A stretch of DNA of 64,000 nt from an uncultured beta proteobacterium (GCA_903859155.1 CAIOLO010000019.1:74472-138471), one strand, 5' to 3'. Shown: positions 9,582 through 60,495, counted from the first letter of the stretch. Notes: generated from the letters alone by a model not told the origin. Numbers and translations: made by a program.

Positions 9582-9624
9582 GTTGTCCTGGGCGGTCAGG
9601 CGTACCGATGCATTGCAACTGCCC

Positions 9625-10905: not shown

Positions 10906-11044
10906 GCGGCGTGTCCGCCGTGCCGGCGCTGCGCTGCTTCAGGCGTCACCGCGGGCGCCGCTGGCATGGGCGGGCGGCCAGTTGCCGCAAACGCGCGATT
11001 CTGTCGCAGGCGGAAGTGGTCAAGCGGATGGCCCGCCCGGCAAT

Positions 11045-11908
11045 CTATGCCGCCTTCGCAGCTTTGGGTTCGAGCGCGATGGCACCCAGATGGCAGCTTT
11101 TTTTCAAAGCGAACTCCAGCGTTTTGCTGCTGAAACGCGGATCGCTCACCTCGATGCGGTAGCTGGCGCCGTCTGCATCCAGCCGGCGGAAACGGAAATC
11201 CCCGTAGGTGTCGCTCACCGTTTCGGCCAGCTTCTGCGTACCCTTCCACAGAACGATGTGAGCATCCGCGATGCATTCGATTGCCCCGTTGAGCATTCCT
11301 TCCAGTGTACCGCCGACGAAGGACTTGAAATAGCTGTCGAGGTTCTTGTAATACACGCGCGGCTTGTTGCCGAATTCGGGGTGAAGCACCTCGAGCTTCT
11401 CGTCGCGCACCATGCGCTGCATTTCCTCGTCTTCCAGATGCAATGTCTGGAAGGCATTGGTCGGACACACCTGCGAGGCGCGCGTCTGCGTCCACCCCTT
11501 GTCGAGCAGGTGCGCGTCGAACGGCCAGGTCTGCGGCAGCTGTTTTTCTTCGTTCCACCAGATCATGCCGTAGGGGCAGGACTTGACCAGTTCCGGGTGC
11601 CCCTTGGAGCGCACCGGGTCGAAAATCACGATGCCGTCGGCGCGCTTGCTGATCGCGCCCTCGGGTGCGCCCTTCATGCAGCTGGGTTCGTCGCAGTGGT
11701 TGCAGGTTACCGGCAGATAGGCCACCTCCACCATGGGATATTCGCCCTGTTCGCGCTGCCGGATCTCGATCCAGCGATGTCCCTGACGCGGCATCTCTTC
11801 GGCATAGCCGGGGAATGAATTGCCGCAGTACTCGTCGTGTACGGCGAGCGCGCAGTTGTTGCAGTTAAAGCACTTCGCTACGTCGATGAGCAGGTTCCAC
11901 TTTTTCAT
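11045..11908 (-). CDS. Pyrogallol hydroxytransferase/resorcinol hydroxylase-like small (beta, Fe-S) subunit, paralog 1
   Basis: True start is '[19 protein letters not shown]' at 11908, overlapping the alpha stop (ATGA). It has 'CNHCDEPSC', 'SCPYG' and a C-terminal carboxypeptidase-regulatory-like beta-sandwich ('YGDFRFRRL'). Only 8 canonical cluster cysteines are present. Confidence 0.8.
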
Positions 11909-14900
11909 GACGGCATCGCCTCCTTGGCTGCGGCTGCATTGGCCGCCACTTTTTCGCTGGTACCAGCGCGCGCGCCCAGGGCCGTCGAGCCGTCCCAGAG
12001 TTCCACCTCCACCAGGCAGGAATTGGGCGCCATCCCCAGCACCTTGCTGGCGATGGAGCGCTTGGGCGTGAGATTGTTGATGCAACCGCCGCGGTCGACC
12101 GAATTCCCCGGTTCGCCCAGAGGGTCGTACACCGCCGAGGAAGAGTAGGAGTGCGCCGTCCCTTGCCCCAGCCGGCTGGTTACATGCGCAGCGCACAGGA
12201 CCGCGCCGCGATCATTGTGCACTTTGACCAGGTCGTGGTGTTTGATGCCGCGCGCCCGGGCGTCCTGGGCGTTGATCCGCACCACCCAGTAGTAGTAGCC
12301 CTTCACCAGTACGCGGTGTTCGGCGATGTCGTTGGTCGAGCATTGCTTGCCGTCGGCGAAGGTGTGAAAACTGAAGCGCGAGTGCGGCGAGAGCAGTTGC
12401 AGCGGAAAACGCCCGAACAGCTCCTTGGTCTGCGGGCCTTCCCAGGACTGCAGGTATCTTACGATCGGCGGGCGCTCCGGATCGTTTGCATCGAAATGCT
12501 TGAGACTGGAGCACTCGAACTCGAACTTGCCGCTCTGGGTCTGCAGCCCCATCAGGAACTGCTTGCGGTAGTCGCCCGGCAGGGGAGAGGGCTCGGGCAC
12601 GTCCTTCTTGCGGCCCTCGTAGAACCAGCGCATCGCCACCGGGTCGCGCTTGCCCTCTTCGAGCGGCGGCACGACGTAATAGCCCTTTTTCAGGAACTCC
12701 TTCCACGAGATGACTTTGGGCAGATCGGAGGCGTCGAACACGCGCTTCACCCAGTCGAGCTCGTTCATGCCTTCGCAGAAATAAGTGCCCAGGCCCAGCC
12801 GGCTGCAGATCTCGGTGAAAATCCGGATGTCGGACTTCGATTCGCCCAGCGGCTCTATGCATTTGTGCTGCAGCATGATGACGCGGTGGTTCATCTGCGT
12901 CTGATAGTGCATCCCATAGCCGCCCGCGTGGGCCAGATCGCTGATGTCCCAGCGCTCGAACTGGGTGCAGGCGGGCAGCAGAACGTCGGCGAACTTCGCT
13001 TCGCCTTCGAACCAGATTGATTGATTTACGACGAACTCGAGCTTGTCGGTACGGTACATGTTCACGTAGCGGTTGGTCTCGGTCATGGTGCCGATGGACG
13101 CACCGCCGTACTTGTAGAGCATCTTGATGGGCGAATGGCCGGGCGCCGGATAGGAAAACTTCATGAACTGGCCTTCGATGGTGAAGCCGTTCCATGGATA
13201 GCCCTCGGCCTTGCCATCCATGATGGCCTCCGGAATGCGCAGGCGCGGCACTTTCTGCATCGAAGGGCCGTAGCTGGGCAGCTGCGGCATGCGCTGATAG
13301 AGGCTGACCGGGATGCCCGTGTTCTGGATGTCGCCCGACATACCGCCCTCGGCGTAGCCGGGGAAATAGAAGCGGATGTCGATAGGCCCGCCGTACTGCA
13401 GGTTGCCGTAGTTCACGCCGGGCTTGCCCATGCCCTGCATGCCCATGAGGCAGGCCAGCGCGCGAGCAAACTGGATGCCGTTGGCGGCGCGGCAGGCGCC
13501 GCCGTGCCCGTTGCCCGGGCCTCCGGCCGCGAGGTAGGTCTTTGTCTTGCCCCACTTGCGCGCAAGGGCTCGCACTTCCTTCGCCGGGACCCCCGTTTCC
13601 GCCTGTTGCCATTCAGGGGTTTTCGGCACACCGTCTTCCTTGCCCAGGACGTAGTCGCTCCAGACATCGAAGCCCACGCAGCGGTCGGCGACGAATTTCT
13701 TGTCGTACAGCCCCTCGGTCATCCAGACGTGCGCGATTGCCAGGGCGAGCGCGGTGTCGGTGCCGGGTTTGGGCGCCATCCATTTCCCGCCCAGCAGCGC
13801 CGCCGTGTGGTTGAAGTAGGGATCGATGTGCACCAGCTCGATGCCCAGGTCCTTGAGCCACTGCCTGCGGATGGTGGCCTCGAACCCGCCGTAAGCGCCA
13901 TTGGTGGCTTCCGGGTCGGACGACCAGAACACCATCATTTCGCATTCCTTCATGCAGTCTTCGATGGTGTTGTAGAACTCCACCTGCCCCAGGCGCATGC
14001 TGTAGCCGTAATGATGCGTGGCGCCCCAGTACCAGCCCTCCCAGCTGTCGGGGTTGTGCGCCACGCGCGAGGCGCCGATGGTGTTGAAGAACTTGTAGGC
14101 CGCGCTGATGTAGTAGCCGATGTTGCCCCACATGTGGTGCGAGCCGTGGTTGCCCAGGATGGCGCCCTGTCCATGCTCCGTCTTGACGCGGGTGATCTCG
14201 CCGGCGACGATGTCGAGGGCCTCTTCCCAGCTGATCCGCTCATACCCGGAGATGCCGCGATTCTGGGGGTTGCGTTCGCCTTTCGGATCGAAATCGACGC
14301 GTTTCATGGGGTAGAGCAGCCGGTCCGGCGAGTAGAGCGTCGATTTCACGCTGACGCCGTGGGGCGAAAGCGTGGTCTTGTGCGGAGGGGTGAAGCTCTT
14401 GCCGCGCGCCTTGATGGTCCACGCCGGGGCATCCTGGTCGGTGAATTCCATCGGTGTGGTGCGAATGACCTTGCCGTCCTTCACGTAGACGAACAAGGGG
14501 CCGCCATTGGTATTGGTGACATAGCGTTTGGTCCCGTCGCCCATGTCGATGCCGTACTCGACCTCCGGGTTCTGCATCAGCATCATGGTCTGGGTGAACC
14601 AGACGATCAGTTCGTCCGAGCCGTCGGCGCCGAACTGATAGTTCTTCATCGCCTCGATGCGCTCCAGTTGGTCCACCCAGGGCACGAACAGCCGCGCGCC
14701 GATCTTCGCCGAGGCGACGCTGATGGTGATGTCCGGTTTCGGGTGGAGGCCGCTCTCTGAGCTGACCCGCCCGTCATTGAAGGTGTAGTACCGGGCTATC
14801 GACTTATCCGCCGTCGCGATCTGGCAGGTGAAGTTCTTTTCCTTGAGCCTTTTTGCGAACTCGGGGAAGCGGCTCGCCTGGAAATTGAGCGCATGGGTCA

Positions 14901-17003: not shown

Positions 17004-17231
17004 GTTTTGCCTTCCTGGAAAATGGGAACCGGCCGCAGCGGGGAACGCACCGTTATTTCGGGCGAGGCCGCGTCCGCGTTTGGACGGTTATAGTTAGCCG
17101 AATCGCACTTGCGTATCTTGATGCAGGTCAACACTTTTCGGAGGCGGACTTCACTTTTCCCGCCCGCCGCCGCTACCGGCGCGCTTTCCCGGTTAGCAAG
17201 CCGGGGGTGATCAGGCGCGCCACAAAGCGCG

Positions 17232-22746: not shown

Positions 22747-24285
22747 ATGAGTGACAGAAGTGGTGCGCCCGATTGCGAGCGGTTTCGCCTGAGGCGCTTT
22801 CTCGAACTGCTCGGCCCTGAGGAGTTGGAGCGGCGCGATGCGCCGGTCGAGCTTGCCGATGTTGCCGCGGCGCTGGAGGGCAATCCCAGGGCCGTTCTGT
22901 TTGCGAGCGCCGGGCCCGAAGGCGCACAGCTTTGCGCCAACGTGCTGGCAAGCCGCAGTCGCATGGCACGCGCCTTCGGCACCACGCGCGAGGGCCTGCT
23001 GCCCGAATTGCTGCGGCGGCTTAAGACGCCTCCCCGGATTGAGGAGGTTTCGCGCGATGCCGCGCCGGTGCAAAGCGTGGTGCTCGAGGGCGACGCTGCC
23101 GATCTGACGGCGCTGCCGGCGCATCTGCAGCACCGGCTCGACGGCGCGCCCTATATTTCGGCATCAGTGGATTACAGCATTGATCCGTCCACCGGCTGGA
23201 CCAATGTGGGCATACGGCGCCTGATGCTGCGCGGGCGCCGCAAGGCGGGCGTGGACTGCACCGTGCCCTCGGACCTGCGCGCCATCATGGAGGCGCACAC
23301 CCGGCGCGGCGAGCCGGTACCGATCGCCTTTGTCATCGGCTCGTATCCGACCGACTACGTCGCCGCCACCATGCGCATTCCCGTCGATGAACTGGGCCTG
23401 GTGGCCTCGCTGCGGGGGGCGCCTTTGCCGGTGGTCAAGTGCATCACCAGCGAAATCCGCGTGCCCGCGGATGCGGAGATGGTGCTCGAGGGTTTTATCG
23501 ACACCGTATCGCCGGTGGAACCCGAAGGGCCCTATGGTGAATTCCTCGGCTATTACGGCGAGGTGAAGCGCAACCCGTTTTTCCGCCTGACCGCGATCAC
23601 CCGCCGCAGGGACGCGCTGTTCCAGACGGCGACCATCAGCGGGCGCACGCTCGCGTGCACCGACACCGCGCAGCTGAATGCGCTGCGCGTCGAGGCCGTG
23701 GCCTGGTCGGCTCTCGAGACCGCGGTGCGCGGGGTCAAAGCCGTATATGCCACTGCGGCCAGCGGTGGCTCGTTTCACCTTCGCATCGCCATGACCCAGC
23801 ACGTGCCCGGCGAGGCGCGCAACGCCATCGCCGCAGTGATGGGCTGTCTTGCCAACGTCAAGCACGTGTTCGTCGTCGATCCGGACATCGACATCTATTC
23901 GGACCAGCAGGTCGAGTGGGCGATGGCCACGCGCTTCCAGGCCGACCGCGACCTGATGGTGCAAGCGGGCATGCGTTCGATGCCGCTGGACCCCTCGGTG
24001 GCCGGAGGACGTTCCTGGGCGAAGGCAGGTTTCGATCTGACGCTTCCGTTCATGCCGCTGGGGCAGGCGCGGCCGATCGCGTTGCGGGTTCCCGAACCGC
24101 CGCGTTACGAGGGTGCCCGCCATGCGTCGCTTGCCGCGGCGCTGGCCGAGGGACCCAAGTACTTCGAAGAACTGATGGCGGCCACCGGCAGCCGTGACGG
24201 CCGCGAAATCGTTCTCGCCCTGGAAATTCTGGAGGAGGGCGGCAGCGTGACGCGCGACGCCGAAGGCCGGTATTTCCGCCAATGA
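22747..24285 (+). CDS. Divergent UbiD-family decarboxylase-like protein, copy 3, with a C-terminal extension
   Basis: 512 aa. 'EGPYGEFLGYYG' is retained, but the 'G.YR' motif reads 'NVGIRR'. About 60 extra C-terminal residues. Confidence 0.7.
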   Translation: MSDRSGAPDCERFRLRRFLELLGPEELERRDAPVELADVAAALEGNPRAVLFASAGPEGAQLCANVLASRSRMARAFGTTREGLLPELLRRLKTPPRIEEVSRDAAPVQSVVLEGDAADLTALPAHLQHRLDGAPYISASVDYSIDPSTGWTNVGIRRLMLRGRRKAGVDCTVPSDLRAIMEAHTRRGEPVPIAFVIGSYPTDYVAATMRIPVDELGLVASLRGAPLPVVKCITSEIRVPADAEMVLEGFIDTVSPVEPEGPYGEFLGYYGEVKRNPFFRLTAITRRRDALFQTATISGRTLACTDTAQLNALRVEAVAWSALETAVRGVKAVYATAASGGSFHLRIAMTQHVPGEARNAIAAVMGCLANVKHVFVVDPDIDIYSDQQVEWAMATRFQADRDLMVQAGMRSMPLDPSVAGGRSWAKAGFDLTLPFMPLGQARPIALRVPEPPRYEGARHASLAAALAEGPKYFEELMAATGSRDGREIVLALEILEEGGSVTRDAEGRYFRQ

Positions 24286-25839
24286 CGAGCTACATCGGAC
24301 GATCGATTCCGCGCGTCGAGGACCTGCGCTTTATCACCGGGCGCGGCTGCTACAGCGACGATGTGTTCCTCGAGGGCCAGGCGTACTGCGCTTTCGTGCG
24401 TTCGCCGCACGCGCACGCGCGCATCGCGGGGATCGAGATCGCGGCGGCGGCGGAATCCCCCGGCGTATTCGCGGTGCTCACCGGCGCGGACTCCACCGCG
24501 GACGGACTGCTCGGCATGGCGCACCTGCCCAATCCCGCTGACGCCCTCGATGTGTCGCTGCGTGCCTTCACCGCATCGCCAACTGTCAGATCGAGCCGCG
24601 CGCGGCTGTCGGCGATTAGGACAAGGCAAGCGGACTGCACACGCTGATCTCGGGCAGGCCAGGGCGCTTTTTTGCACAAGATGACGCTCGCACGCGTTTT
24701 CAGTGTCGAGATGGAAAAAGTGCGCGTGATCTGCCCCGATGTCGGCGGCGGTTTCGGGCCGCGCACCAACATGTATCCGGAGCAGGTGGTGGTGCTGTGG
24801 GCGGCCAAGAGGCTCGGCAGGCCGGTCAAATGGACCGGCGATCGCAGCGAAGCGTTCGTCTCGGACTATCAGGGACGCGACGGTGCGATGCGCACCGCGT
24901 TTGCGCTCGATAGCGAGGGCCGCATCCTTGCCTACGACATGCAATGGTTGGGCAATGTCGGCGCGCACACGGTGTCGTTTGTGACCATGTCCAACGGGCG
25001 TCGCATGCTGCCCACGGTGTATCACGTCCCGATGGCGCATTTCCAGGTGCAGGCGGTGTTCACCAACAGCGTGCCGACCGCACCGTACCGCGGCGCGGGC
25101 AGGCCCGAGGCCACGCACATGATCGAGCGCCTGCTCGACATGGCGGCTGCGCGCCTCAATATCGACAGGGTGGATATCCGCAGGCGCAATCTGGTGGGAT
25201 TGGACAGGCTGCCGTATCGCTCGGTGTCAGGGCTCTTGTACGACAGCGGTGATTTCGCCGGCTACGTGGAGAGCGCGCCTTGCGGGCACGCTGCTGGTGC
25301 AGGGATGCGGCGAAGTGATCGAGCAGGGTCGTGCGGCCGCGGGCGCACTGCTGGAGGTGGCCTCGGGCGATATCGTCTATGCAGAGGGTGTCTACCGCGT
25401 CAACGGCACCGATCGTTCTCTCGGGCTTTTCGAGGTGGCGCGCGCGCTGCAGGCGGGCAAACCCGGCGCAGGCTCTCGCCAGTCGCTCGCCGCCACCTGC
25501 GATTTCAAAGGCCGCACGCCCGCCTATCCGGCGGGCTGCGCGGTCTGCGAACTTGAAATCGATGCGCAGACCGGCCAGGTGCTCTCGGGTTCCTTCCTCG
25601 ATTACGGCATCAGCCGTGCCGACGACCTGCCTTCTTTGCGCGTCGAACACGCCGAACATCCCACCGCGGGCAATCCGCTGCGGATCAAGGGAGGCGGCGA
25701 AGGCGGCATCGTTCCCGCAACCGCAGCGGTGCTCAACGCCCTGTGCGACGCGCTAGTGCGGGCGCGGGTGAACGATCTTCCGATGCCCGCGACTGCGGCG
25801 GCGGTGTGGCAGAAGACGCGTGGGATCGACACTCCCTAG
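24282..25839 (+). pseudogene. Decayed xanthine dehydrogenase/CO dehydrogenase-family molybdopterin (CoxL-like) large subunit
   Basis: Three fragments lie in different frames: 24282..24647, 24672..25556 and 25249..25839. They carry the N-terminal ('IGRSIPRVEDLRFITGRG'), middle ('VGGGFGPR','APYRGAGRPEA') and C-terminal ('IKGGGEGGIVPATAAVLNAL') family motifs. About 520 codons remain where about 770 are expected. Confidence 0.8.
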
Positions 25840-28510: not shown

Positions 28511-28730
28511 GATTGTGTTGGCAGACCCGCAAAGTGGCGCACATGGACCGGCAACACATTGATCTACGTCAATCCGCTACGCTTATTTGAACGCCCGCCC
28601 GATGGGCCAGGCTGCGATCGATGCGCCTGACCGGAGCACCCCGTGTTTGTTATAGTTCGCGACCACGGCCCGCCGTCCGAATGACGTGTTTGCGTCCTTC
28701 CGCGAGACGCGGGTCAGCCAGGAAATCGAA

Positions 28731-29603: not shown

Positions 29604-29824
29604 AGCGGCGCAAAATCGCGTGAACTGCGGCGCCAGCTTGCTCTCGATGCGACATGTTTGACACAGGTCAATTGCCCAATTGCAGCGTCCTTTTACCCTG
29701 CCTTGTCCGCTGCCAGGACCCACGGGGCATTCCGGCCGCGAAGGCGAGGCGACCGAAGTCACGCCGCGGCGGGCTTCCCGGCAGTCAATTTTGTACGTGA
29801 ACATCCGATCTGGAAGGTGGTGAT

Positions 29825-40708: not shown

Positions 40709-40968
40709 GGTCCCTCCTTGCTTACGGATGGTTTGGTTGAATTGGCCTGCGCACGACAGGGCACAGCGGATATGCGACTGTCTGGGACAGTCGCGCTTAC
40801 GCTGCATTGGCGAATGATGGGCGCAAGCGGCGCGCAGGCATTGATCTTGGTCAAAGGCACGGAAATCGCCTTGCAGTGAATGCGAAGCTCGCGTGCGAGT
40901 GCGATACGTTTTTCTGAAACAGGCCCGCATTCACTGCTGCCGAATCTGCGGCGACCAGTCCTGCTAAT

Positions 40969-46695: not shown

Positions 46696-47994
46696 CTATT
46701 TCATCGTTTCCGGCAGCCACAGCGCAATCTGCGGAAAAAACATCAGCAGGATGGTGGTGGCCAGGATGGCGAACATCAGCACGCTGGTGCCCTTGTACAC
46801 GCTGGTCAGGGGAACTTTGCCGGCAGCGCTTACGACGAACGCGATCATTCCCACGGGTGGGAACACCAGCCCCATCGATACCATCAGCATGGAGATGACG
46901 CCGAACCAGACCGCGTCGAAACCCAGAGAAGTGATCAAGGGGAACGTCAGTTGAAGGGTGAGCAGCAGCAGCGGGATTTCGTCCATGAACATGCTGATGA
47001 TGAAATACGCCACTACGATCGCGATAATCACCACCCAGCGGTTGAGGTTCATTGCGGCCACCACTTCCACGGCGTGCTGCGGAATGCGGCTGAGCGCCAT
47101 GAAATAGCCGAAGATGGTCGCGCCGATCAGGATAAGAAAGATCATGGCGGAGGTGGCGAGCGTGTCCTTCACCGCTTTCAGCGCGCTATCGAGGTTCAAT
47201 CTGCCGGTGACGAAGCCGATCAAACCGGCGGCAAAAGCGCCGATGGCCCCGGTCTCGGTCGGCGTGGCGACACCCGAATAGAGCAGGCCTATCACCACCA
47301 GGATCAGCAGCAGGCTTGGCCACACGCGCCAGGTTGATGCCCATTTTTCACTGGAGGACACCTTGGGTGTGCGCGGCGCATCCTGCGGTCTGAGTACCGC
47401 CCACCCGTAAATGATCACTGCAAGCAGAATGCCCACGACGATGCCCGGGATGATGCCGGCGATCAGCAGTTTGCCGATCGAGGTCTGAGTCGCGACGGCG
47501 TAGATCACCATCGCGATGCTGGGGGGGATCAGTATGTCGAGGGTTGCCCCGACGCCGATGGCGCCGGCGGCCAGCGCGTCGGAATAGCCGTGGCGCCGCA
47601 TCTCTGGCATGGCGATCTGTGACATGGCCGAAGCTGCCGCGGTACTCGCGCCAGACATGGCGCCGAAGATGCCGCAGGCGAATACCGTGGCGATGGCCAG
47701 GCCGCCGCGTATCGGCGACATCCAGCTTGCCGCCGCCGCATACAGGTCGCGGGCGAGGCCGCCACCGGCAGACAGGTAGGCCATCAGTATGAACGTCGGA
47801 ATCGTCGACAGCGAATAGTCGGCAACGCTGCTGAAAGGGGTCATGCTGACAATGCCCATCACCCGGGTGATGTCACCGCTGACAAGGAAGATGCCCAGCA
47901 TGCCGGAGACGGCAAGCGATACCGCTATGGGCACGCCGAACAGCATCAACGCCAGCAGCAGTATGAAGGGCATAAGGGCCATGGTGTTGCTCAC
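46696..47994 (-). CDS. TRAP transporter large permease (DctM family)
   Basis: 432 aa and highly hydrophobic. Follows the small permease with a 4-nt overlap (GTGA). Confidence 0.85.
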   Translation of the reverse strand: MSNTMALMPFILLLALMLFGVPIAVSLAVSGMLGIFLVSGDITRVMGIVSMTPFSSVADYSLSTIPTFILMAYLSAGGGLARDLYAAAASWMSPIRGGLAIATVFACGIFGAMSGASTAAASAMSQIAMPEMRRHGYSDALAAGAIGVGATLDILIPPSIAMVIYAVATQTSIGKLLIAGIIPGIVVGILLAVIIYGWAVLRPQDAPRTPKVSSSEKWASTWRVWPSLLLILVVIGLLYSGVATPTETGAIGAFAAGLIGFVTGRLNLDSALKAVKDTLATSAMIFLILIGATIFGYFMALSRIPQHAVEVVAAMNLNRWVVIIAIVVAYFIISMFMDEIPLLLLTLQLTFPLITSLGFDAVWFGVISMLMVSMGLVFPPVGMIAFVVSAAGKVPLTSVYKGTSVLMFAILATTILLMFFPQIALWLPETMK

Positions 47995-48497
47995 AAGGCG
48001 GCCTCTTCAGACTGGAACATGGGAGTCTCGCCGCTGTAGGCGTGGCGCAGGTCGATGAGCATCAGCAAACTGAGAAAACCAAGGCCCAGCGGCGCCAGCC
48101 AGTAGCCGGGAGCGAGCAGCCAGGGCAGGGTCGACAGTGTGGTGGCGTCGGCGGTGACCCGCATTGATTGCTGCGCCGTGGCATAGACCAGCAGCGCACA
48201 GAAGGCGAGCGACAACCCCTGCGCGAGCACATAGGTCCACGCCTTCACGGCGTCGGGCAGCATGTCCACGCAAAACGTGACACGAATGAATGCGCCGCCG
48301 CGGTAGGCCGCCGCGAAGCCTGGAAAGATCGCGGCTGCCATCAGGTACTTCTCGGTGATTTCGTAGGCGCCGGCAATGGGACTGTTGAGGAGATAGCGGC
48401 TCGCCGCATCCACCGTGCCCAGGCAGGTCATGGCGACAACCGCCACGACCCCCAGGTATGTCAGTCCGGTTTCAAAACGTTCGAGCCACTTGGTCAC
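47991..48497 (-). CDS. TRAP transporter small permease (DctQ family)
   Basis: 168 aa with four hydrophobic segments. Positioned between the P and M components. Confidence 0.75.
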   Translation of the reverse strand: MTKWLERFETGLTYLGVVAVVAMTCLGTVDAASRYLLNSPIAGAYEITEKYLMAAAIFPGFAAAYRGGAFIRVTFCVDMLPDAVKAWTYVLAQGLSLAFCALLVYATAQQSMRVTADATTLSTLPWLLAPGYWLAPLGLGFLSLLMLIDLRHAYSGETPMFQSEEAAL

Positions 48498-48503
48498 GCG
48501 TTT

Positions 48504-49541
48504 CTACCGCTGTTTGAGCAGTTCGAGCGCCGTATCGAGAATCTGTTGCGCCTCGGGCCGACCTTTGCTCTTCTGGGTATTCACCCATTCGCTCCACAGC
48601 GGGTCGCCCGCCACTTTGCGCCAGCGTGCCAGTTCATCGGGCGGCAGGGTGTAGCTGTCCATGGGGTGCTTGCCCTTCTTGATAAGCTCCAGCACCGCGC
48701 CCTCGGCCTCATCGAACCACTGCTTGCCGAATTCCTTGGAACCTTCCAGCCCGCTCACGCTCATGAGGCTGTCGCGGACTTCCTTGGGCAGGCTGTCCCA
48801 TTTCGGTTTGTTGGCGCACATGGAGAAATACACCGCCGAGAGCGGCACGCGTGTGTAGTATTTCAGCACTTCGTAGAGGCGGAAGCCGTGCAGCGCCTCC
48901 CAGGGTGCGGCCATGCCGTCGATGGTGCCTTTGTCCAGGGCCAGGTAGTTGTCTGGCATCGGAACGGCTGTCGGTACGGCGCCCAGCGCGCGCATCTGCG
49001 CGGTGGGTGGTCCGCCGGTCACGCGGATCTTCATGCCCTTCAGGTCCTCGATCGTTTTGACCTGTTTCTTGGTGGTGACCAGCATGTAGGGATTGCTGGT
49101 CCAGAGCATCAGGATCTGCGCATCCTTGTATTCGCGTTGGATTGAGGGAAACTTCTCGTACAGTTTCCAAAGCACTTCGCTGCCTTTTTCGGCAGTGTTA
49201 TAGGGCAGGAATGGCAGGGTGATCACGTCTGACAGCGGTGTCATCTCCGGCCAGTAACCGTGGAAGCACCAGCCGAAGTCGGCGACGCCGCTCTTGACTG
49301 CGTTCCACATGTCGGGGCCCTTGGCGAGCGTCTGGGTCGGGTAGACGTCGAACTTCACCCGTCCCTTGGTCGCCGCTTCGGCTTTTTTCACCCAGCCCAA
49401 CATGGCATGCTGGTGGCCCCAGGACGTGGGCGGGTTCTGGTCGGCGATGGTGAGTTTGATCGCCTGGGCGACCGATGCCTGAGGCGCGCACAGCGCTGCG
49501 GCGGAGACTGCTAGGATTGCTAGTGCATTGCGCGTGACCAT
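48504..49541 (-). CDS. TRAP transporter substrate-binding protein (DctP family)
   Basis: 345 aa with a signal peptide and a GGAGGA RBS. First gene of the P-Q-M order. Confidence 0.8.
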   Translation of the reverse strand: MVTRNALAILAVSAAALCAPQASVAQAIKLTIADQNPPTSWGHQHAMLGWVKKAEAATKGRVKFDVYPTQTLAKGPDMWNAVKSGVADFGWCFHGYWPEMTPLSDVITLPFLPYNTAEKGSEVLWKLYEKFPSIQREYKDAQILMLWTSNPYMLVTTKKQVKTIEDLKGMKIRVTGGPPTAQMRALGAVPTAVPMPDNYLALDKGTIDGMAAPWEALHGFRLYEVLKYYTRVPLSAVYFSMCANKPKWDSLPKEVRDSLMSVSGLEGSKEFGKQWFDEAEGAVLELIKKGKHPMDSYTLPPDELARWRKVAGDPLWSEWVNTQKSKGRPEAQQILDTALELLKQR

Positions 49542-49876
49542 CTCGTCCTCCTCTGGGCATAAGATTCGGCGATGCTAGAAGAACGCCCCGCCAAGTGATT
49601 TGACCTGAGTCAACAAATATCGGGATAGACTCCGGATGGCCTGAAAGGCGTTGCCCGCTGATATTTTTCGAGTCGCGTCGGGAGTCCGGTGCTGGTGTTC
49701 CGGAACGGCCCAGCGTCGCGGCAAAGCCTCAGGGCTCCGGGCGTGATTCTGCGTCGTGCCGGCGTGACAACAAGCCAGGCTGCGTTCCGAAATGCCGTGA
49801 CCGGCACCCGCTTGATCCAGGTCAAAGCCGCCTGGCGGGGGCAGGCGCACTCTCGGGGGCAGGAGGGTTTACCATC

Positions 49877-51577
49877 ATGCCGGTCCAATACCCGACGCAG
49901 CTCGAGGAAGCTCGTCTGCCGCGCGGCGCGTTGCCCGATATCCGCTTTACGCTCGCCGCCTGCCAGTTTCCGGACACGCTGAATGTCGCCGATCACCTGC
50001 TCGAGCGCAATCTGTCGATTGCGCAGGCCGGGCGCAGCGCATTTTTCTGCGGCGCGCGCGCCATTACCTATGCCCAACTGAACGAATCGGTAAATCGCAT
50101 CGGCAGCGCGCTGCGCGGCCTCGATATCGGCCCCGGCGATCGCGTGGTGCTGCGTCTGCCCAATTCGATCGAGTTTGCGGTGTGTGCCCTGGCGCTGCAC
50201 CGGTTGGGCGCGGTGGTGGTGCCCACCAACGTGCTGCTGCGCGAGCCGATAGTCACCCATATAGTCAACCGCACCGCGGCAAAAGCGATCATCGTTCACC
50301 ATGAATTCCTCGACGCCGTGGAGCGCGGGCGTGCCGCGCAACCGGCACTTCAGTGGTGCATCGTGGCCGGTGGCGGGCCGTTGCCGGCGGGCGGCGCCGC
50401 TACCCTTTCCTACGAGCGTCTGCTCGAATCCGGCAGCCCCTCGCTGTCGAGCGCTGCGGTGCGGCGCGATGCGCTCGCCGCGATTTTTTTTACCTCAGGC
50501 ACCACCGGTTTGCCCAAAGGCTGCATGCATCTTGCCGGCACGCTGCTCGCCGGTGCGCATGCCGGCTTGGCCATGTATGACACCATCCGGCCGGACGACG
50601 TGGTCAGCGGCACGCCGCCGCTCGCCTTCACCTTCGGCTACGGTCATGTGATGCTGCTGCCGTTGCTGGCCGGGGTGCCGGGGGCGTTCATCGAGGGGCG
50701 CGCAACGCCGCAGAACGTGTTCCGCACCATCGAGCAGCACCGCGTGACGCTGTTTCACAGTGTTCCCTCGGCTTATATTCAGATGCTGGGCGCTGCAGAG
50801 GATGCCAACCGCCACGACTTGTCGTCGCTGCGCGCCACGCTCGCCGCCGGCGCGCCTACTCCACCGACAGTGTTTCGCTCCTGGCAGGAGCGCTTTGGCA
50901 CGCCCATCGCCAACGCCATGGGATCGAGCGAGTCGTTCGTGAGCATATTCAGCCGCTCGATGGCAGATCCGCCGCCGGGTGCCATGGGTCTGCCCCTGCC
51001 CGGGTGGGAGGTGCGTGTGCTGGACGAAAGCGGCCGCGACGCGGCGCCCGGCGTCATCGGCCGCCTTGCGGTTCGCGGACCGGCCGGTACGCTCTACTGG
51101 TGCGATCCGGAAAAGCAGGCCGAAGCGGTTATTGATGGCTGGAGCCTGACCGGTGATCTGGTGCGGCAGGATGGTGATGGCTGCTACTGGCACGAATGCC
51201 GCAACGATGACGTGATCAAGAGTCGCGGCTACCGCATTTCTCCCGGGGAGGTCGAGGACGCGTTGCTCGCGCACGCGGCGGTGCTGGAGCCGGCCGTGGT
51301 TGGCGCACCCGATGCGGTGCACGGCCAGAAAGTCAAGGCATTCATCACGCTGCACGGCGGTTACCAGGCTTCGGCTGCGCTGGCCGAGGAATTGCGCAGC
51401 TTTGCGCGCGAACGTCTTGCGCCCTACCAGGTGCCGGCCGAAATCGAATTCATCGACGCAATGCCCAAGACCGAGACCGGCAAGATCCTGCGCCGCGAAT
51501 TGCGCGACCGCACCCGCAGCGAGACCTCGATGCGCGAAGCCGTCCTGCAAACCCCGGTTGCTGCGGAGAATTCATGA
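49877..51577 (+). CDS. Aryl-CoA (benzoate-CoA ligase-like) AMP-dependent ligase
   Basis: 566 aa. 'FFTSGTTGLPKG' and C-terminal 'TETGKILRRELR'. The N-terminal region resembles benzoate/aminobenzoate-CoA ligases. The stop overlaps the next start (ATGA at 51574-51577). Confidence 0.75.
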   Translation: MPVQYPTQLEEARLPRGALPDIRFTLAACQFPDTLNVADHLLERNLSIAQAGRSAFFCGARAITYAQLNESVNRIGSALRGLDIGPGDRVVLRLPNSIEFAVCALALHRLGAVVVPTNVLLREPIVTHIVNRTAAKAIIVHHEFLDAVERGRAAQPALQWCIVAGGGPLPAGGAATLSYERLLESGSPSLSSAAVRRDALAAIFFTSGTTGLPKGCMHLAGTLLAGAHAGLAMYDTIRPDDVVSGTPPLAFTFGYGHVMLLPLLAGVPGAFIEGRATPQNVFRTIEQHRVTLFHSVPSAYIQMLGAAEDANRHDLSSLRATLAAGAPTPPTVFRSWQERFGTPIANAMGSSESFVSIFSRSMADPPPGAMGLPLPGWEVRVLDESGRDAAPGVIGRLAVRGPAGTLYWCDPEKQAEAVIDGWSLTGDLVRQDGDGCYWHECRNDDVIKSRGYRISPGEVEDALLAHAAVLEPAVVGAPDAVHGQKVKAFITLHGGYQASAALAEELRSFARERLAPYQVPAEIEFIDAMPKTETGKILRRELRDRTRSETSMREAVLQTPVAAENS

Positions 51578-52458
51578 GCCTGCCGCAATTCACCCACCTG
51601 CGTCCTGCGGACTTGCGCGAAGCCTCGGCCATGCTGCTCGAGCTGCCCGGTGAATCCCGGGTGCTGGCAGGCGGCACCGACATGCTTGTAAAGATGAAGC
51701 TGCGCCGGCAGGTGCCGCGCTACCTGATCAACTTGAAGAAGATCGCGGGACTGGAAGGGTTGCGCGACGAGCCCGGCGGCGGGCTGAGCATAGGCCCGCT
51801 CACCACCCTCGAGGCCTTGAAAACCTCGGTCGTGGTGCGGAAAAAATATCCGCTGTTGCACGACGCCGTCGCGCGCATGGGAACGCTGGAGATCCGCAAC
51901 TGCGGCACGGTGGGCGGCAACCTGTGCAATGCCTCGCCTGCCGCCGAGACCGTTCCGGCGCTGCTGCTGCTCGGGGCGACTCTCCACCTGGTGAGCCGCG
52001 ACACGCAGCGCAGCGTGGCGCTTGAAGCGTTCATCCAGGGGCCGGGCCGCACGCAGCTGGCGCGCGGCGAATTGCTCGCCACCATCCACGTTCCGGAGCC
52101 TGTACAGGGCAGTTTCGGCGCCTACGAAAAGCACAGCCTGCGGCGCATGGATCTCGCGGTTGTCGGCGCCGCCGTCCTCCTCGGCACGGAGGGTCCGCTA
52201 TGCCGCTGGGCGAAGATCGCGCTGAGTGCCGTCGGTCCGACTGCTCTGCGCGCGCACCATGCCGAGTCGCTGCTTGCGGGCCGCGAGGTGGACGAGGCGT
52301 GCATGCAGTCGGCTGCGCGCGCCGCCGCCGCCGAGGTTCAGCCGCAGGCGGATCTTCACGGCACCGTCGAACAGAAGCGCGAGATGGCCGCGGCGCTCAC
52401 CGCACGAGTCATCGCGCGCGCGCTAGAGCGCGCCGGTTTGCACCCGGGGAGGGCCTGA
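51574..52458 (+). CDS. CoxM/XdhB-like FAD-binding subunit of the xanthine oxidase/CO dehydrogenase family
   Basis: 294 aa. 'LAGGTDMLVKMK', 'CGTVGGNLCNASPAAE' and a CO_deh_flav_C-like tail. Confidence 0.8.
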   Translation: MSLPQFTHLRPADLREASAMLLELPGESRVLAGGTDMLVKMKLRRQVPRYLINLKKIAGLEGLRDEPGGGLSIGPLTTLEALKTSVVVRKKYPLLHDAVARMGTLEIRNCGTVGGNLCNASPAAETVPALLLLGATLHLVSRDTQRSVALEAFIQGPGRTQLARGELLATIHVPEPVQGSFGAYEKHSLRRMDLAVVGAAVLLGTEGPLCRWAKIALSAVGPTALRAHHAESLLAGREVDEACMQSAARAAAAEVQPQADLHGTVEQKREMAAALTARVIARALERAGLHPGRA

Positions 52459-52459: not shown

Positions 52460-54895
52460 ATGGCCTGGCGCACGCACACGGCCGAACGCCCGGATGCCCC
52501 GGCGAAGCAGCGCGTCCAGATCACGGTCAACGGCCGGCGCCACCGGTTCACACTCGATCCGGGCACCACGCTCATAGAAGTCCTGCGCGACAAGCTGAAG
52601 TTCACCAATACCAAGGAAGGCTGCGGCGTGGGCGAATGCGGCACCTGCGCGGTGGTCATGAACGGCCGCGCGGTTAATTCCTGCCTGGTGCTGGCGCTCG
52701 ATGCGGACGGCGCGGACATCGTCACGCTCGAGGGCATGGCCACTTCGCTCGGACCACAGCCGGCGCAGGAATCGTTTGTCGACCAGGAGGCGCTGCATGC
52801 GCGCGTCGATGGCGGCGCGCCCGCGGAACGTCGCGAAACGCTGACCTTCTGCCACATTTGTGCGGGCCGCTGCGCGGTGCGCGTCACTTCGGCCGACGGT
52901 GTCATCGTCGACATGGCGCCCGAAACCGAGAGCGGCCTGCCCAATGAGCAGTGCGTGGTGCGCAAGGGCCGCATGTCCATCCCAGAAATCCACAGCCACC
53001 GCGACCGGCTGCTGTATCCGCAGAAGCGCATCGGCGAGCGCGGCGAAGGCAAGTGGCAGCGCATCTCCTGGGACGAGGCGCTCGATACCATCGCCGAGCG
53101 CTTTCGTGAGGTCAAGGAACAGCACGGTCCGGAGTATGTCGTCATGGGGCTGGGCGAGCCCAAGGGCATGGAGTTCGCCTTCGGCCAGCGCTTTGCCTCG
53201 GTGTTCGGCACGCCCAATGTCATCACGCCGGCATGGATGTGCGGCATCAGCTTCGGCCTGGCACAGGCCTACACGTTTGGCAAGGGCGCGGTGCCCGAGG
53301 AGGAGCACGATCCGGCGCTCATCGTGTGCTGGGGCATCAACCCTAATCACACCAGCGGCAGCCTGCGGCGCCAGACCTTCAGCCGCGACATGAAGGCGGG
53401 CGCGAAGCTCGTCACCATCGATCCCAAAAAGACCGACATGGCGGCGCTTGCCGATCTGTGGATCAAGCCGCGCCCGGGCGCCGATGGCGCGCTGGCGCTG
53501 GGGGTGCTCAAAGTCATCGTCGAGGAGCGCCTCTACGACAAGGCTTTCGTGGAGCGCTGGACCGTCGGATTCGCGGAACTGGAGGCGGAACTGCGCACCT
53601 TCACGCTGGAGGAGGTCGAGCGCATCACCTGGGTGCCCCGCGAGCAGGTGCGCAAATTTGCGCGCCTGTTTGGCGAATTGCGTCCGGCGTGCGTGCAATG
53701 GGGCAACGCGCTCGACCAGGGTTTGAACGGCTTCCAGTTGCACCGCACCATTTCGATCATCGTCGCCATCACCGGCAATCTCAACGTGCCCGGCGGCCTG
53801 GTATTTGTCGACTCGCGCCACAACCATGTTCGGCCGGGCAAGTTCTACATCCCTTCGCGGGAACTCAGAAATTCCGAGCGCGCCATCGGCGCGCGGGAGT
53901 ATCCGCTGTCGATCCGCTCGGCGGTGCTGCCTTCGCGACTGTTCGTCAAGGCGATGCTCGAGGGCGTTCCCTACCGGCCGAAGGCTGCGCTGTTCATCCT
54001 CACCAATCCGGTGGTCAGCTATCCGGGGTCGCAGAATGCCGTTGCCGCGCTCAAGAAGCTGGAATTCATCGCCGTGGCGGAGATTTTCATGACGCCGACG
54101 GCGGCGCTCGCAGACATCGTGCTGCCGGCGGCCACCGGCATGGAGCATGACGAGATCGGCTACTGGCCGGGCTGGTACGGAGAAGTGCGCGCGCATCCGA
54201 AAATTGTCGAGCCGCCGGGAGAGTGCCGCGGCGACACCGACATGTTGAATGACCTGGCGGGGCGATTGGGCCTGAAGCACTTCTGGAAAAAGGACGAAGA
54301 CGCGCTCGACGAGTGGCTCGGGCCGAGCGGCCTCAGCTTCGAGGACCTGAAGCGCCGCCGCACCCTGCTGCCGAAAATCAGCTATGGCTGGTCGGATTTT
54401 TCCACGCCGTCGGGCAAGGTCGAGATCCTTGCCGAACGGCTCACCGAGCACGGCGTCGCCACGCTGCCGCGCTGGCGCGATTTGTGCCAGTTGCCGGTCA
54501 TTCCCGCGGAGTACCCGCTGTTGATGACCAACGGCAAGGAAGAAGTGTTCATGAACACCGGCTTCAAGAACATCGGCGCACTGCGCGCGATGAAGCCCGA
54601 ACCAGTGGTGCAGATGAACCCGCAGACCGCACGCGCAGCCGGCCTGGCTGACGGCGACATGGTGAACATCGAGAGCAAGAGCGGCTGCATCCGGCAGCGC
54701 CTTCAGTTCGAGGCCAGCCTCGACCCGCGCGTGGTGATCGCCTCGTTCGGCTGGTGGTTCCCCGAGGACCGCGACGATAAATTCGGCTGGGACCGGGCCA
54801 ACATCAACATGCTCACCTGCGACGAAGGTCCGTACGACCCGGTATCCGGATGCATGGTGTTGAAAGGCGTTCCCTGCCGAGTGACACGGGCCTGA
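52460..54895 (+). CDS. Fusion protein: CoxS-type plant-like [2Fe-2S] domain + [4Fe-4S] domain + bis-MGD molybdopterin catalytic domain (acetylene-hydratase-like)
   Basis: 811 aa. C55-x4-C60-x2-C63-x11-C75 ('GCGVGECGTCAV...NSC'). The second CoxS cluster motif (QCGFCTPG) is absent. C131-x2-C134-x3-C138-x26-C165 follows. After that it is colinear with the 6651..8909 enzyme ('LLYPQKRIGERGEGKWQRISWDEAL','GADGALALGVLKVIVEERLYDKAFV','TPTAALADIVLP'). Confidence 0.8.
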   Translation: MAWRTHTAERPDAPAKQRVQITVNGRRHRFTLDPGTTLIEVLRDKLKFTNTKEGCGVGECGTCAVVMNGRAVNSCLVLALDADGADIVTLEGMATSLGPQPAQESFVDQEALHARVDGGAPAERRETLTFCHICAGRCAVRVTSADGVIVDMAPETESGLPNEQCVVRKGRMSIPEIHSHRDRLLYPQKRIGERGEGKWQRISWDEALDTIAERFREVKEQHGPEYVVMGLGEPKGMEFAFGQRFASVFGTPNVITPAWMCGISFGLAQAYTFGKGAVPEEEHDPALIVCWGINPNHTSGSLRRQTFSRDMKAGAKLVTIDPKKTDMAALADLWIKPRPGADGALALGVLKVIVEERLYDKAFVERWTVGFAELEAELRTFTLEEVERITWVPREQVRKFARLFGELRPACVQWGNALDQGLNGFQLHRTISIIVAITGNLNVPGGLVFVDSRHNHVRPGKFYIPSRELRNSERAIGAREYPLSIRSAVLPSRLFVKAMLEGVPYRPKAALFILTNPVVSYPGSQNAVAALKKLEFIAVAEIFMTPTAALADIVLPAATGMEHDEIGYWPGWYGEVRAHPKIVEPPGECRGDTDMLNDLAGRLGLKHFWKKDEDALDEWLGPSGLSFEDLKRRRTLLPKISYGWSDFSTPSGKVEILAERLTEHGVATLPRWRDLCQLPVIPAEYPLLMTNGKEEVFMNTGFKNIGALRAMKPEPVVQMNPQTARAAGLADGDMVNIESKSGCIRQRLQFEASLDPRVVIASFGWWFPEDRDDKFGWDRANINMLTCDEGPYDPVSGCMVLKGVPCRVTRA

Positions 54896-54920: not shown

Positions 54921-56204
54921 CTACTCCCGGCGCATCAGCGTCAGGGCCGGCAGTTCGTCTTCGACCACGTAGCCGAAGCGCTGCCGGAAATCCGCCGGGG
55001 ACAGGCCCGCGGCCTGCGCCAGCCGGGCGAGCTTCTGCGGATTGTCGAAATCGTCGCGCCGCAACCGCACCATGTAGCGCCGGGCGATCGCATAACGCGT
55101 TGAACCGATATCGACGGTGCGCACCCGCGTCCTTCCGGTTGCGGGGTCGAGCATGCTCGAGAACGGCACCGGCACGAATTGCCCGCCCTGCAAAGTAACC
55201 ATGGCGTTCGCGCCGCCTTCGATGAGAAATTTAGCCGCGCAGTAACCGAGGTCGCGCGTGTACTCGATATCGTAGGGTATCGGGTCCGCGCAGCGCAGTT
55301 CGTAGCCGATGTCTTTGGCGGTGATGGTGATCTTGAGGCCGAGGCCGGTGACGCGGTCCTGCACCACTTTTTTGATTCCGCGTCCCAGGTCGATCTCGGA
55401 GATGCGGATGTGGTCGTGCTCGTCGCGTTCGATGGCCCCCAGGCGATCGAGTTCCGCTTCGGGAATGCTCTCGGCCAGGCCCTCGGCGAGGATCGCCACG
55501 CCGTCGACGCGGCCCCCGGAGGCGCGCTTGACGATCGCGCCGGTCAGAATGTCGGCGATCTTGTCCAGGGTTGCCTTGCCGCCGGCAAACTCCTCCGGGA
55601 TGACCGCAAGCGTGGCCCCCGAGGCCTTGGCGATGCCCAGGGCGAGGTGGCCCGCCTTGCGGCCCATGGCGACGACAAAATACCAGCGACCCGCGGACTG
55701 CGCATCGACCATCAGGTTCTTCACCAGTGCGACACCCAGGTGCCGCGCTGTCTGGAATCCGAAGGTGTCGATGTGGGAGGGAAGCGCAAGATCGTTGTCG
55801 ATGGTCTTGGGCACATGCACCACGCGCAGCGCGGCTGCGGCCCGTTCGGCGACTTTCATCGCCGCGAAGGCCGTGTCGTCCCCGCCGATGGTGATCAGTT
55901 GTCCCACGCCGAGTTCGTGCAGGGACTTCACCACCTGATCCAGATGCCCGGATTGCTTGGTCGGATTCGCCCTTGATGTGCCCAGGCAGGTTCCGCCGAG
56001 GAAATGAATGCGGCTCACTTCGTCGATGTCCAGGCTGCGCGCGCAATCCAGCCGGCCCTGCATGAGTTCGGAGAATCCGTTGCGTATGCCAAGGACCTCG
56101 ATGCCCTGGAGCCGGGCGCGGATGGTGGCCGCGCTGATCACACTGTTGATTCCGGGCGCCGGTCCGCCGCCTACCAGGATCGCGAGCTTCTGGGGATTTG
56201 TCAT
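54921..56204 (-). CDS. 6-phosphofructokinase, probably PPi-dependent
   Basis: 427 aa. 'GGGPAPGIN', 'IGGDDT' (Asp rather than Gly), 'PKTIDND' (Lys rather than Gly) and 'MGRKAG'. Confidence 0.75.
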   Translation of the reverse strand: MTNPQKLAILVGGGPAPGINSVISAATIRARLQGIEVLGIRNGFSELMQGRLDCARSLDIDEVSRIHFLGGTCLGTSRANPTKQSGHLDQVVKSLHELGVGQLITIGGDDTAFAAMKVAERAAAALRVVHVPKTIDNDLALPSHIDTFGFQTARHLGVALVKNLMVDAQSAGRWYFVVAMGRKAGHLALGIAKASGATLAVIPEEFAGGKATLDKIADILTGAIVKRASGGRVDGVAILAEGLAESIPEAELDRLGAIERDEHDHIRISEIDLGRGIKKVVQDRVTGLGLKITITAKDIGYELRCADPIPYDIEYTRDLGYCAAKFLIEGGANAMVTLQGGQFVPVPFSSMLDPATGRTRVRTVDIGSTRYAIARRYMVRLRRDDFDNPQKLARLAQAAGLSPADFRQRFGYVVEDELPALTLMRRE

Positions 56205-60178: not shown

Positions 60179-60495
60179 GTTTCTGCCTTTCCTTTTTTGA
60201 TGCGAACCTGGCGCGCAAGAACCCGCGCTCAAGCTCGAGCGAAACCAAGCGTGTTGCCGATCTTAAAAAAACCTGCGCCGCTTTCAAATGAAATGAATGC
60301 TTTTTTCAATATTTTCAGTTGCGCTGCCGCGCCACCTCTGCAACGGGGTGCTTCTTACTTGCCTGATGATTGAAAGGCCTTTCGGTTGCATTAAGCGCTC
60401 GGACAGCGTTGGACATTTGATGCAGATCAAATAGGTGGTGGCCCCTTTAAATGCATAGTTGTCCTTTGAGTCGGTTGGGCCGGGCAAGACCCGGC

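Follow-up and report, generated by a model that had tools for sequence, protein, structure and literature searches.

Three adjacent genes in a 64,000-nucleotide stretch of DNA from an uncultured beta proteobacterium (CAIOLO010000019.1:74472-138471 of GCA_903859155.1; the whole stretch is hereafter called the window) encode, in this order, an adenosine monophosphate (AMP)-forming coenzyme A (CoA) ligase resembling those of aryl acids, a CoxM/XdhB-type flavin adenine dinucleotide (FAD) subunit, and a protein in which a [2Fe-2S] domain is fused to a bis(molybdopterin guanine dinucleotide) (bis-MGD) catalytic domain. We propose, with a probability of roughly 0.55, that the three genes form one operon for a single oxygen-free pathway of a ring-substituted aromatic acid. 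That the operon itself is real and conserved we hold with little doubt. The case is built on the junctions between the genes, on the recurrence of the same gene order in many phyla, on the relationships and active-site motifs of the proteins, and on a parallel operon for 4-hydroxybenzoyl-CoA reductase in the same genome.

The operon and its conservation

The junctions between the three genes are tight. The TGA of the ligase gene and the ATG of the FAD-subunit gene share the four bases ATGA at 51574-51577; the FAD-subunit gene ends at 52458 and, after a single T at 52459, the ATG of the fusion gene begins at 52460. An earlier reading of the window, made from the sequence alone, had given exactly these gene boundaries, this overlap and this 1-nt gap, and had described a tight three-gene unit, a description now supported by the recurrence of the ligase-FAD-fusion order in many phyla. 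A purine-rich, Shine-Dalgarno-like sequence precedes each of the three start codons, and a consensus scan placed no terminator-like site at either the ligase/FAD or the FAD/fusion junction (the region as a whole had 4 such sites, against 4.0 expected).

How widely is this arrangement kept? A survey from the enzyme side, with one genome per species, yielded 17 loci whose fused protein is complete, [2Fe-2S] domain included (51-61% identity). Ligase, FAD-subunit and fusion genes follow one another in the same order and on the same strand in 11 of these, and the ligase-containing hosts are labelled as Actinomycetota, Chloroflexota, Syntrophorhabdales and other Deltaproteobacteria, Rhodospirillaceae, Betaproteobacteria, Verrucomicrobiia and Binatia. 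In a twelfth locus (L005, 1-3845), no FAD-subunit gene intervenes, and the fusion gene begins about 200 bp downstream of the ligase gene; the enzyme there must draw its flavoprotein from elsewhere or use another partner. Three loci were too short upstream to be scored for a ligase. L008 has no ligase upstream, and a PaaK-sized AMP-binding gene lies 3.5 kb downstream.

We also surveyed from the ligase side, by a metagenome scan and tblastn, those relatives that have readable downstream DNA. Every ligase of at least 45% identity over the aligned part continues into an FAD-subunit gene and then, where the contig reaches, into the fusion gene (L081-L085, L146, L050, L003, L017, L001, L012 and L163). 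The ligases of the metagenome loci L081-L085 and L146 are 65-95% identical to that of the window, and L163, from a genome of the same family (G020), has a 58% identical ligase followed by both genes. Among about 45 loci with ligases of 35-40% identity, no FAD-subunit or fusion gene followed the ligase.

The ligases linked to the enzyme pair are of more than one kind. A quick maximum-likelihood tree (IQ-TREE; its long-branch rows, the distant ligases, are unreliable and served only as the outgroup) placed the window ligase and its close relatives in a single clade with a support of 98, here called type A. A second lineage, type B, precedes the pair in Syntrophorhabdales, Betaproteobacteria, Rhodospirillaceae, Verrucomicrobiia and Binatia; its members are only 28-33% identical to the window ligase, carry the pocket motif K-L-F-F-H-Y, and form a clade with a support of 100 that is not sister to type A. 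Family scores here and below refer to NCBIfam models with curated cut-offs, and the domains of the window proteins were called with Pfam. Both type-B ligases that were scanned pass the model of the benzoate-CoA ligase family, TIGR02262 (cut-off 375.25 bits), at 415 bits in L004 and 405 bits in L015, and the best solved relatives of the L004 ligase are the same aryl-CoA ligases as those of the window ligase. Two aryl-CoA-ligase-like lineages, and possibly a third type in L008, have thus become coupled to the same enzyme pair. Nothing else, in our view, argues as strongly that the enzyme works in the pathway of an aromatic acid and its CoA ester.

We considered that the adjacency might be incidental, the ligase having another role among the many aromatic genes of this island. 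Ligases, UbiD genes and molybdoenzymes abound there, so that chance neighbours are common. Chance would not easily produce the ATGA overlap, however, nor an order kept across phyla in 12 of the 17 fused loci (11 with the FAD-subunit gene between), nor the fact that every readable type-A ligase, in surroundings that otherwise vary, leads into the FAD-subunit gene and, on contigs long enough, into the fusion gene. An incidental neighbourhood is already very unlikely.

An orthologue of the ligase was found in one of the 24 same-family genomes searched and in none of five same-genus genomes (60-97% complete), and the unit is therefore an accessory trait. The window DNA itself was found only in lake-water DNA metagenomes. 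Our literature search on the gene combination returned no description of the unit, the fusion or the ligase clade: a review of the dimethyl sulfoxide (DMSO)-reductase superfamily does not mention the architecture, and two papers on benzene degradation cite acetylene hydratase only in their reference lists.

The ligase and its pocket

The ligase consists of an AMP-binding domain (PF00501, E-value 1.3e-76) and its C-terminal companion (PF13193, 5.3e-21). Its best solved relatives are the anthranilate-CoA ligase AuaEII (4wv3, 3.8e-87) and the Burkholderia benzoate-CoA ligase BCL_M (2v7b, 8.3e-76), followed by an acetyl-CoA synthetase (9g79) and then by BadA of Rhodopseudomonas (4eat). The core of the ANL family is intact, in that the P-loop FTSGTTGLPKG and the segment KTETGKILRR with the C-terminal catalytic lysine align with those of the solved ligases. 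With BadA, BCL_M and AuaEII the window ligase has in common the fold, the P-loop (TSGTTGxPKG), the catalytic lysine and the aryl-pocket motif F-[AT]-[FY]-G. The last reads F251-T-F-G254 in the window ligase, as in AuaEII, and F-A-Y-G in BadA and BCL_M; the acetyl-CoA synthetase 9g79 has no counterpart of it. The window ligase differs from these three enzymes in being longer at both ends (the N-terminus by about 30 residues, the C-terminus by about 20), in having A-G-A-P in place of S-A-G-E, and in the conserved pair of the pocket wall, which is His-Ile in 4wv3, 2v7b and 4eat (G-S-T-E-x-x-H-I-F) and Val355-Ser356 in the window ligase (G-S-S-E-S-F-V-S-I-F). This G-A-P is a signature of the type-A clade, S-A-G-E being the form found in the group of benzoate and 2-aminobenzoate CoA ligases.

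The His-Ile pair is also replaced in all other fusion-linked ligases, mostly by smaller residues. Mutagenesis of BadA has reportedly shown that this pair lines the benzoate pocket and that shrinking it enlarges the pocket for substituted benzoates. Val355-Ser356 suggests a substrate other than benzoate, probably a larger or more polar one.

At an identity of at least 45%, a large protein database contained about 35 clusters of type-A relatives, all metagenomic, the few named ones being labelled Burkholderiales or Chloroflexi. Beyond type A the identity falls to 43% or less, and those proteins are automatically named 2-aminobenzoate-CoA or benzoate-CoA ligase. By its sequence the window ligase is placed in an uncharacterised clade beside the benzoate, 4-hydroxybenzoate and 2-aminobenzoate CoA ligases. 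Two simple identities were rejected: that of a 4-hydroxybenzoate ligase, the genome having a separate ligase linked to hcr genes, and that of a 2-aminobenzoate ligase, the proteins so named keeping L-H-I-F where the type-A clade does not. That the ligase acts on an aromatic acid is, in our judgement, quite probable.

The hybrid enzyme

The FAD subunit scores 194.8 bits on the XdhB model and only 104.8 bits on the HcrB model TIGR03195 (cut-off 404.55). It is of ordinary length (294 amino acids) and lacks the extra [4Fe-4S] insertion of HcrB; the true HcrB of this genome has 326 amino acids. The fusion protein begins with a xanthine-dehydrogenase-type [2Fe-2S] domain at about residues 15-113, matching the small subunits of the CoxS/PaoA type, and continues after a linker into a bis-MGD catalytic domain with a [4Fe-4S] motif of its own. 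The sequence-only reading had suggested that the unit would use a molybdenum cofactor of another family than that of 4-hydroxybenzoyl-CoA reductase; the catalytic domain is of the bis-MGD type (PF00384 and PF01568). The metal is predicted to be molybdenum or tungsten. No twin-arginine translocation signal was found in the fusion protein, whose [2Fe-2S] domain lies directly at the N-terminus; the enzyme is therefore taken to be cytoplasmic, as an enzyme of CoA esters must be.

The best solved relative of the catalytic domain is acetylene hydratase (2e7z; 6.5e-88, 298.8 bits), the next one reaching 187 bits. The metal ligand Cys141 of acetylene hydratase, in M-C-G, aligns with M-C-I-G of the window protein, and the [4Fe-4S] cysteines are also aligned. 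The segment C-Q-S-C-D of acetylene hydratase, however, aligns with C-H-I-C-A, which replaces Asp13 with alanine. Asp13, which sits beside the second [4Fe-4S] cysteine, is essential for hydration in acetylene hydratase, and we rejected an identity of the fusion enzyme as an acetylene hydratase. The genome (5.3 Mb) holds seven acetylene-hydratase-like bis-MGD genes, only one of them fused to a Fer2 domain, together with about 20 ANL ligases and 34 matches to the model of the xanthine-oxidase-family large subunit; enzymes for aromatic acids are unusually expanded in it.

A parallel operon in the same genome

The sequence-only reading had likened the unit to 4-hydroxybenzoyl-CoA reductase, and this analogy proved apt. 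Another contig of the same genome (C107; the locus L161 is C107:8500-19500) carries a ligase-hcrC-hcrA-hcrB operon, whose products exceed the cut-offs of the three Hcr models (gamma 260.9 against 257.8, alpha 1169 against 995, beta 418.5 against 404.6). The open reading frame (ORF) of its ligase ends at position 2996 of L161 and hcrC starts at 2993, a stop/start overlap like that in the window, and its ligase and that of the window are each other's closest paralogues in the genome (37-39% identity). The benzoyl-CoA reductase subunit BcrC and the ring-opening hydrolase Oah, both above their cut-offs, are encoded on C107 as well. The organism therefore already has an enzyme for 4-hydroxybenzoyl-CoA and a complete route for its product. 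The same order ligase-hcrC-hcrA occurs in two further genomes of the family, in loci that end inside hcrA. This canonical cluster of the anaerobic benzoyl-CoA pathway was traced in L161 and also in C107:23957-27013, and a 2,3-dihydroxybenzoate-AMP-ligase-like gene and more UbiD genes lie near it.

How close is the likeness? In HcrCAB of the Thauera aromatica type (1RM6), as in the window unit, an aryl-CoA ligase gene is coupled to the genes of a molybdenum enzyme, and both systems combine a CoxM-type FAD subunit with a CoxS-type [2Fe-2S] module in a cytoplasmic enzyme of an anaerobic aromatic pathway. Besides the [4Fe-4S] insertion that the FAD subunit of the window lacks, they differ in three respects. 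First, HcrA belongs to the xanthine-oxidase family, whereas the catalytic subunit of the window is of the bis-MGD type (DMSO-reductase family). Second, the fusion has only the first [2Fe-2S] domain, and the [4Fe-4S] cluster of the bis-MGD domain replaces the second one of HcrCAB. Third, the gene order is ligase-FAD-FeS/Mo in the window and ligase-FeS-Mo-FAD in hcr. The window unit is a second system laid out on the hcr plan, presumably for a different substituted acid.

Promoter boxes

Table 1. Positions of the genes and sites discussed (window coordinates)
Feature	Position	Strand	Basis or remark
AMP-forming aryl-acid CoA ligase gene	49877..51577	+	566 aa; PF00501 and PF13193
CoxM/XdhB-type FAD-subunit gene	51574..52458	+	294 aa; PF00941 and PF03450
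[2Fe-2S]/bis-MGD fusion gene	52460..54895	+	811 aa; Fer2, Molybdopterin and Molydop_binding
Shine-Dalgarno-like AGGAGGG	49861..49867	+	9 nt before ligase ATG; direct sequence reading
FNR/CRP-type box TTGATCCAGGTCAA (TTGAT-CCAG-GTCAA)	49812..49825		starts 65 bp before ligase ATG; missed in the sequence-only reading
FNR/CRP-type palindrome TTGACCTGAGTCAA (TTGAC-CTGA-GTCAA)	49600..49613		direct reading and motif scan
Divergent dctP-dctQ-dctM TRAP transporter genes	46696..49541	-	Pfam DctP, DctQ and DctM; context only

The box TTGATCCAGGTCAA matches the FNR-type consensus at 9 of 10 positions, and all 14 of its bases recur upstream of the ligase orthologues in L081 (88% ligase identity) and in L082, L083 and L084 (65%). 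In each orthologue the box starts 65-76 bp before the start codon, while its flanks and the upstream gene differ. The FNR-type consensus is TTGAT-N4-ATCAA. The box is a likely activator site of the promoter of the ligase operon, at which an FNR/CRP-type regulator would probably switch the operon on.

A second palindrome, TTGACCTGAGTCAA, had been noted in the intergenic region before; it is present there, one nucleotide away from the position first given (49600-49613 instead of 49599-49612). It begins 59 bp upstream of the dctP start codon (counted from the first base, 49541), is 277 bp distant from the ligase ATG, and is absent upstream of the orthologous ligase genes in L081-L084. Because of this nearness to dctP and this absence from the orthologous promoters, we assign it to the divergent tripartite ATP-independent periplasmic (TRAP) transporter operon, to whose promoter it probably belongs.

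For the pattern TTGAY-N4-RTCAA the window has 8 occurrences where chance would give 0.13, a 60-fold enrichment, and none of 100 shuffles reached 8. The eight boxes are at 8977-8990, 17118-17131, 28559-28572, 29658-29671, 40841-40854, 49600-49613, 49812-49825 and 60417-60430. Seven of them lie between called genes; that at 8977 is inside the longest ORF, 6651-9251, upstream of the point at which the homology to the acetylene-hydratase-like family starts. The seven intergenic boxes are upstream of operons for neighbours of an acetylene-hydratase-like enzyme, TctC binding proteins, a UbiD protein, the TRAP transporter, the ligase unit and a transhydroxylase-like pair. To judge by its boxes, the whole island looks like one FNR/CRP-type regulon. 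A Pfam scan, which did not cover every ORF, found no CRP/FNR-family match among the window proteins scanned.

Neighbouring genes

Of the 17 fused loci, 9 contain genes for (de)carboxylases of the UbiD family. The Actinomycetota loci L001, L012, L003 and L017 share the ligase-FAD-fusion genes, a HAD protein, a 231-amino-acid protein without a family match and a PpcB-like UbiD protein; the cluster is inverted in L017, and the 231-amino-acid protein was not called in L003. The two Actinomycetota UbiD copies that were scanned score 439-444 bits on the model of the phenylphosphate carboxylase beta subunit (cut-off 469). The Actinomycetota clusters also contain a Peripla_BP_6 binding protein, not seen in L017, and in L001 and L012 the cluster extends to a vinylphenol-reductase-like flavoprotein, a double-cubane/HGD-D-like protein and another uncharacterised protein. 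In one Chloroflexota locus three UbiD genes and two Amidohydro_2 genes come right after the fusion gene; the Amidohydro_2 family of Pfam includes aromatic-acid decarboxylases. Such neighbours fit hydroxylated aromatic acids that arise from the carboxylation of phenols, in the manner of the pathways for phenol, catechol and hydroquinone.

The sequence-only reading had also set the unit against a TRAP operon transcribed divergently across 335 bp (49542-49876). This layout is borne out, DctP, DctQ and DctM being recognised by Pfam on the minus strand, but the link to the unit is not conserved: neither L081-L084 nor the fused loci have an adjoining TRAP gene, and the upstream gene on the opposite strand in L081-L084 is an unrelated ligase-like gene. 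The transporters gave no conclusion about the substrate, for the closest solved relatives of the TRAP binding protein and of a nearby TctC protein have no informative names, those of the TctC protein being a glutamate-binding Bug protein and terephthalate-binding proteins.

On the other side of the unit, a pyrophosphate-dependent phosphofructokinase gene (54921-56204; NF041103, 623.6 bits, above the cut-off) converges on the fusion gene across a gap of only 25 bp without a recognisable terminator. Elsewhere in the window, at 24282-25556, fragments of a xanthine-oxidase-family large subunit (partial MoCoBD_1) directly follow a UbiD gene; the genome search gave split matches there, one with an internal TGA, and this is probably a decayed gene.

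The proposed reaction and its alternatives

What might the unit do? We propose that the ligase would convert an aromatic acid into its CoA thioester at the expense of ATP, and that the FAD subunit and the fusion protein would form a soluble cytoplasmic enzyme in which electrons may pass from FAD through the [2Fe-2S] and the [4Fe-4S] clusters to Mo/W-bis-MGD. The hybrid enzyme would most likely act on the aryl-CoA that the ligase makes, a step to which we give slightly better than even odds. We favour a reductive dehydroxylation of the ring, with NAD(P)H supplying the electrons, for example in a dihydroxybenzoyl-CoA, which would make the enzyme a bis-MGD counterpart of 4-hydroxybenzoyl-CoA reductase; the reverse alternative would be a water-dependent hydroxylation. 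The product would enter the benzoyl-CoA pathway encoded on the other contig.

We lean towards reduction for two reasons. First, reductive catechol dehydroxylases are the sole members of the acetylene-hydratase clade known to catalyse redox reactions (PMC7028382). Second, in the urolithin 9-dehydroxylase a CoxM-type FAD subunit and a [2Fe-2S] subunit feed a molybdenum centre for a reductive dehydroxylation (PMC13753352). These two points make a reductive dehydroxylation plausible, and neither proves it.

The order of the two steps is a separate matter. The principal rival, to our minds rather unlikely, keeps the same pathway and reverses it: the molybdoenzyme would hydroxylate or dehydroxylate the free acid, and the ligase would then activate the product for the benzoyl-CoA pathway. 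The characterised dehydroxylases of the clade do act on free catechols and need neither a thioester nor its electron-withdrawing effect (PMC7028382). The conserved synteny, moreover, proves a shared pathway and not a step order, and L002, a Thermincola genome bin, has the FAD-fusion pair with two UbiD genes and transporters and no ligase. That the residues of the ligase pocket co-vary with the subclade of the enzyme is a pattern that either order would give. On the other side, in 12 loci the ligase gene comes first and is translationally coupled (with the FAD-subunit gene between in 11), and the hcr operon of the same genome, with the same arrangement, goes with a thioester substrate.

Several observations weigh against the pathway as we propose it, and we gather them here. 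A gene order does not fix a reaction order. In the xanthine-oxidase family, FAD/[2Fe-2S] modules mostly belong to oxidative hydroxylases, and the window island is rich in transhydroxylase-like genes. Of the fused loci long enough to judge, only L002 is without a ligase; in this locus (1-12519) two UbiD genes, an NMT1-type ATP-binding cassette system and a major facilitator superfamily transporter precede the FAD and fusion genes, and genes for a 3-hydroxyacyl-CoA dehydrogenase and a thiolase directly follow them. The UbiD genes of the different loci are not clearly orthologous, and with about 19 UbiD paralogues in the genome of the window their linkage may partly reflect aromatic islands. The HAD protein of the Actinomycetota clusters was tried as a phenylphosphate carboxylase delta subunit and rejected, its match being a generic HAD one.

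The family scores of the ligase belong among these points. On TIGR02262 it reaches 343.9 bits, 31 bits short of the curated threshold, and so falls outside that family; on a generic 'long-chain-fatty-acid-CoA ligase' subfamily model it scores 355 bits, likewise under the cut-off. Of the earlier label 'benzoate-CoA-ligase-like', then, the aryl-CoA-ligase neighbourhood stands, by the best solved relatives and the F-T-F-G motif, and family membership does not. The hcr-linked ligase on C107 is also under the cut-off, at 358.8 bits.

Might the acid then not be aromatic at all? In this alternative the ligase would activate an alicyclic, alkenoic or alkynoic acid, and the acetylene-hydratase-like domain would hydrate or oxidise the unsaturated acyl-CoA. 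The generic fatty-acid model is indeed the top NCBIfam match of the ligase, the closest solved catalytic domain hydrates a carbon-carbon triple bond, and the dehydrogenase and thiolase genes of L002 would suit such a route. However, the solved proteins nearest to the ligase are aryl-CoA ligases with whose pocket motif it agrees, the type-B ligases that were tested do exceed the benzoate-CoA-ligase cut-off, the neighbours include phenylphosphate-carboxylase-like UbiD and Amidohydro_2 proteins, and the fusion protein has alanine at the place of Asp13. We consider a non-aromatic substrate improbable.

Which dihydroxybenzoyl-CoA might it be? In anaerobes, protocatechuate is reported to be broken down by way of protocatechuyl-CoA, which is then dehydroxylated reductively (PMC4585845). 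One may speculate that the operon encodes a new class of aryl-CoA dehydroxylase, converting protocatechuyl-CoA to 3-hydroxybenzoyl-CoA or gentisyl-CoA to benzoyl-CoA, a specific proposal that we put forward tentatively, as less likely to be right than wrong by a wide measure. If it were true, a bis-MGD domain like that of the catechol dehydroxylases would have replaced the xanthine-oxidase-type subunit while the FAD/[2Fe-2S] input was kept, and the type-A ligases would be dihydroxybenzoate-CoA ligases.

Relation to other molybdoenzymes

The catechol dehydroxylases of Eggerthella and Gordonibacter (Dadh, Cldh, Dodh and others; PMC7028382) are bis-MGD enzymes that reductively remove a ring hydroxyl and whose nearest characterised relative is acetylene hydratase. 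No CoA ligase or FAD/[2Fe-2S] module is known to accompany any of them, and our comparison of them with the window enzyme is by description only. The urolithin C 9-dehydroxylase of Enterocloster, with its three subunits, resembles the window enzyme in having an FAD subunit of standard length and a [2Fe-2S] input; it differs in its xanthine-oxidase-family catalytic subunit, its free substrate and the lack of a ligase. Molybdenum enzymes that oxidise or hydroxylate an acyl-CoA made by a dedicated ligase have precedents in PadBCD, the phenylacetyl-CoA:acceptor oxidoreductase, and in HmfABC, the 2-furoyl-CoA dehydrogenase with its ligase HmfD. PadBCD is a membrane-bound type II member of the bis-MGD family without FAD, and HmfABC is purely of the xanthine-oxidase family; to our knowledge, neither combines the two cofactor families.

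Implications

In anaerobic bacteria, most aromatic compounds are channelled to benzoyl-CoA. For taking a ring hydroxyl off an aryl-CoA, 4-hydroxybenzoyl-CoA reductase is the only enzyme we know of. Dehydroxylation of protocatechuyl-CoA and of gentisyl-CoA was reportedly detected in cell extracts of anaerobes by Gorny, Schink and Philipp, and we know of no dedicated gene for either. A dedicated ligase together with a hybrid FAD/[2Fe-2S]/bis-MGD enzyme, present in at least eight phyla, is a concrete candidate for such an aryl-CoA dehydroxylation. The unit also shows that a catalytic subunit of the DMSO-reductase family can acquire electron-transfer modules typical of the xanthine-oxidase family. 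The ligase is a simple soluble protein, and its substrate range would name the substrate of a molybdoenzyme that is itself much harder to handle.

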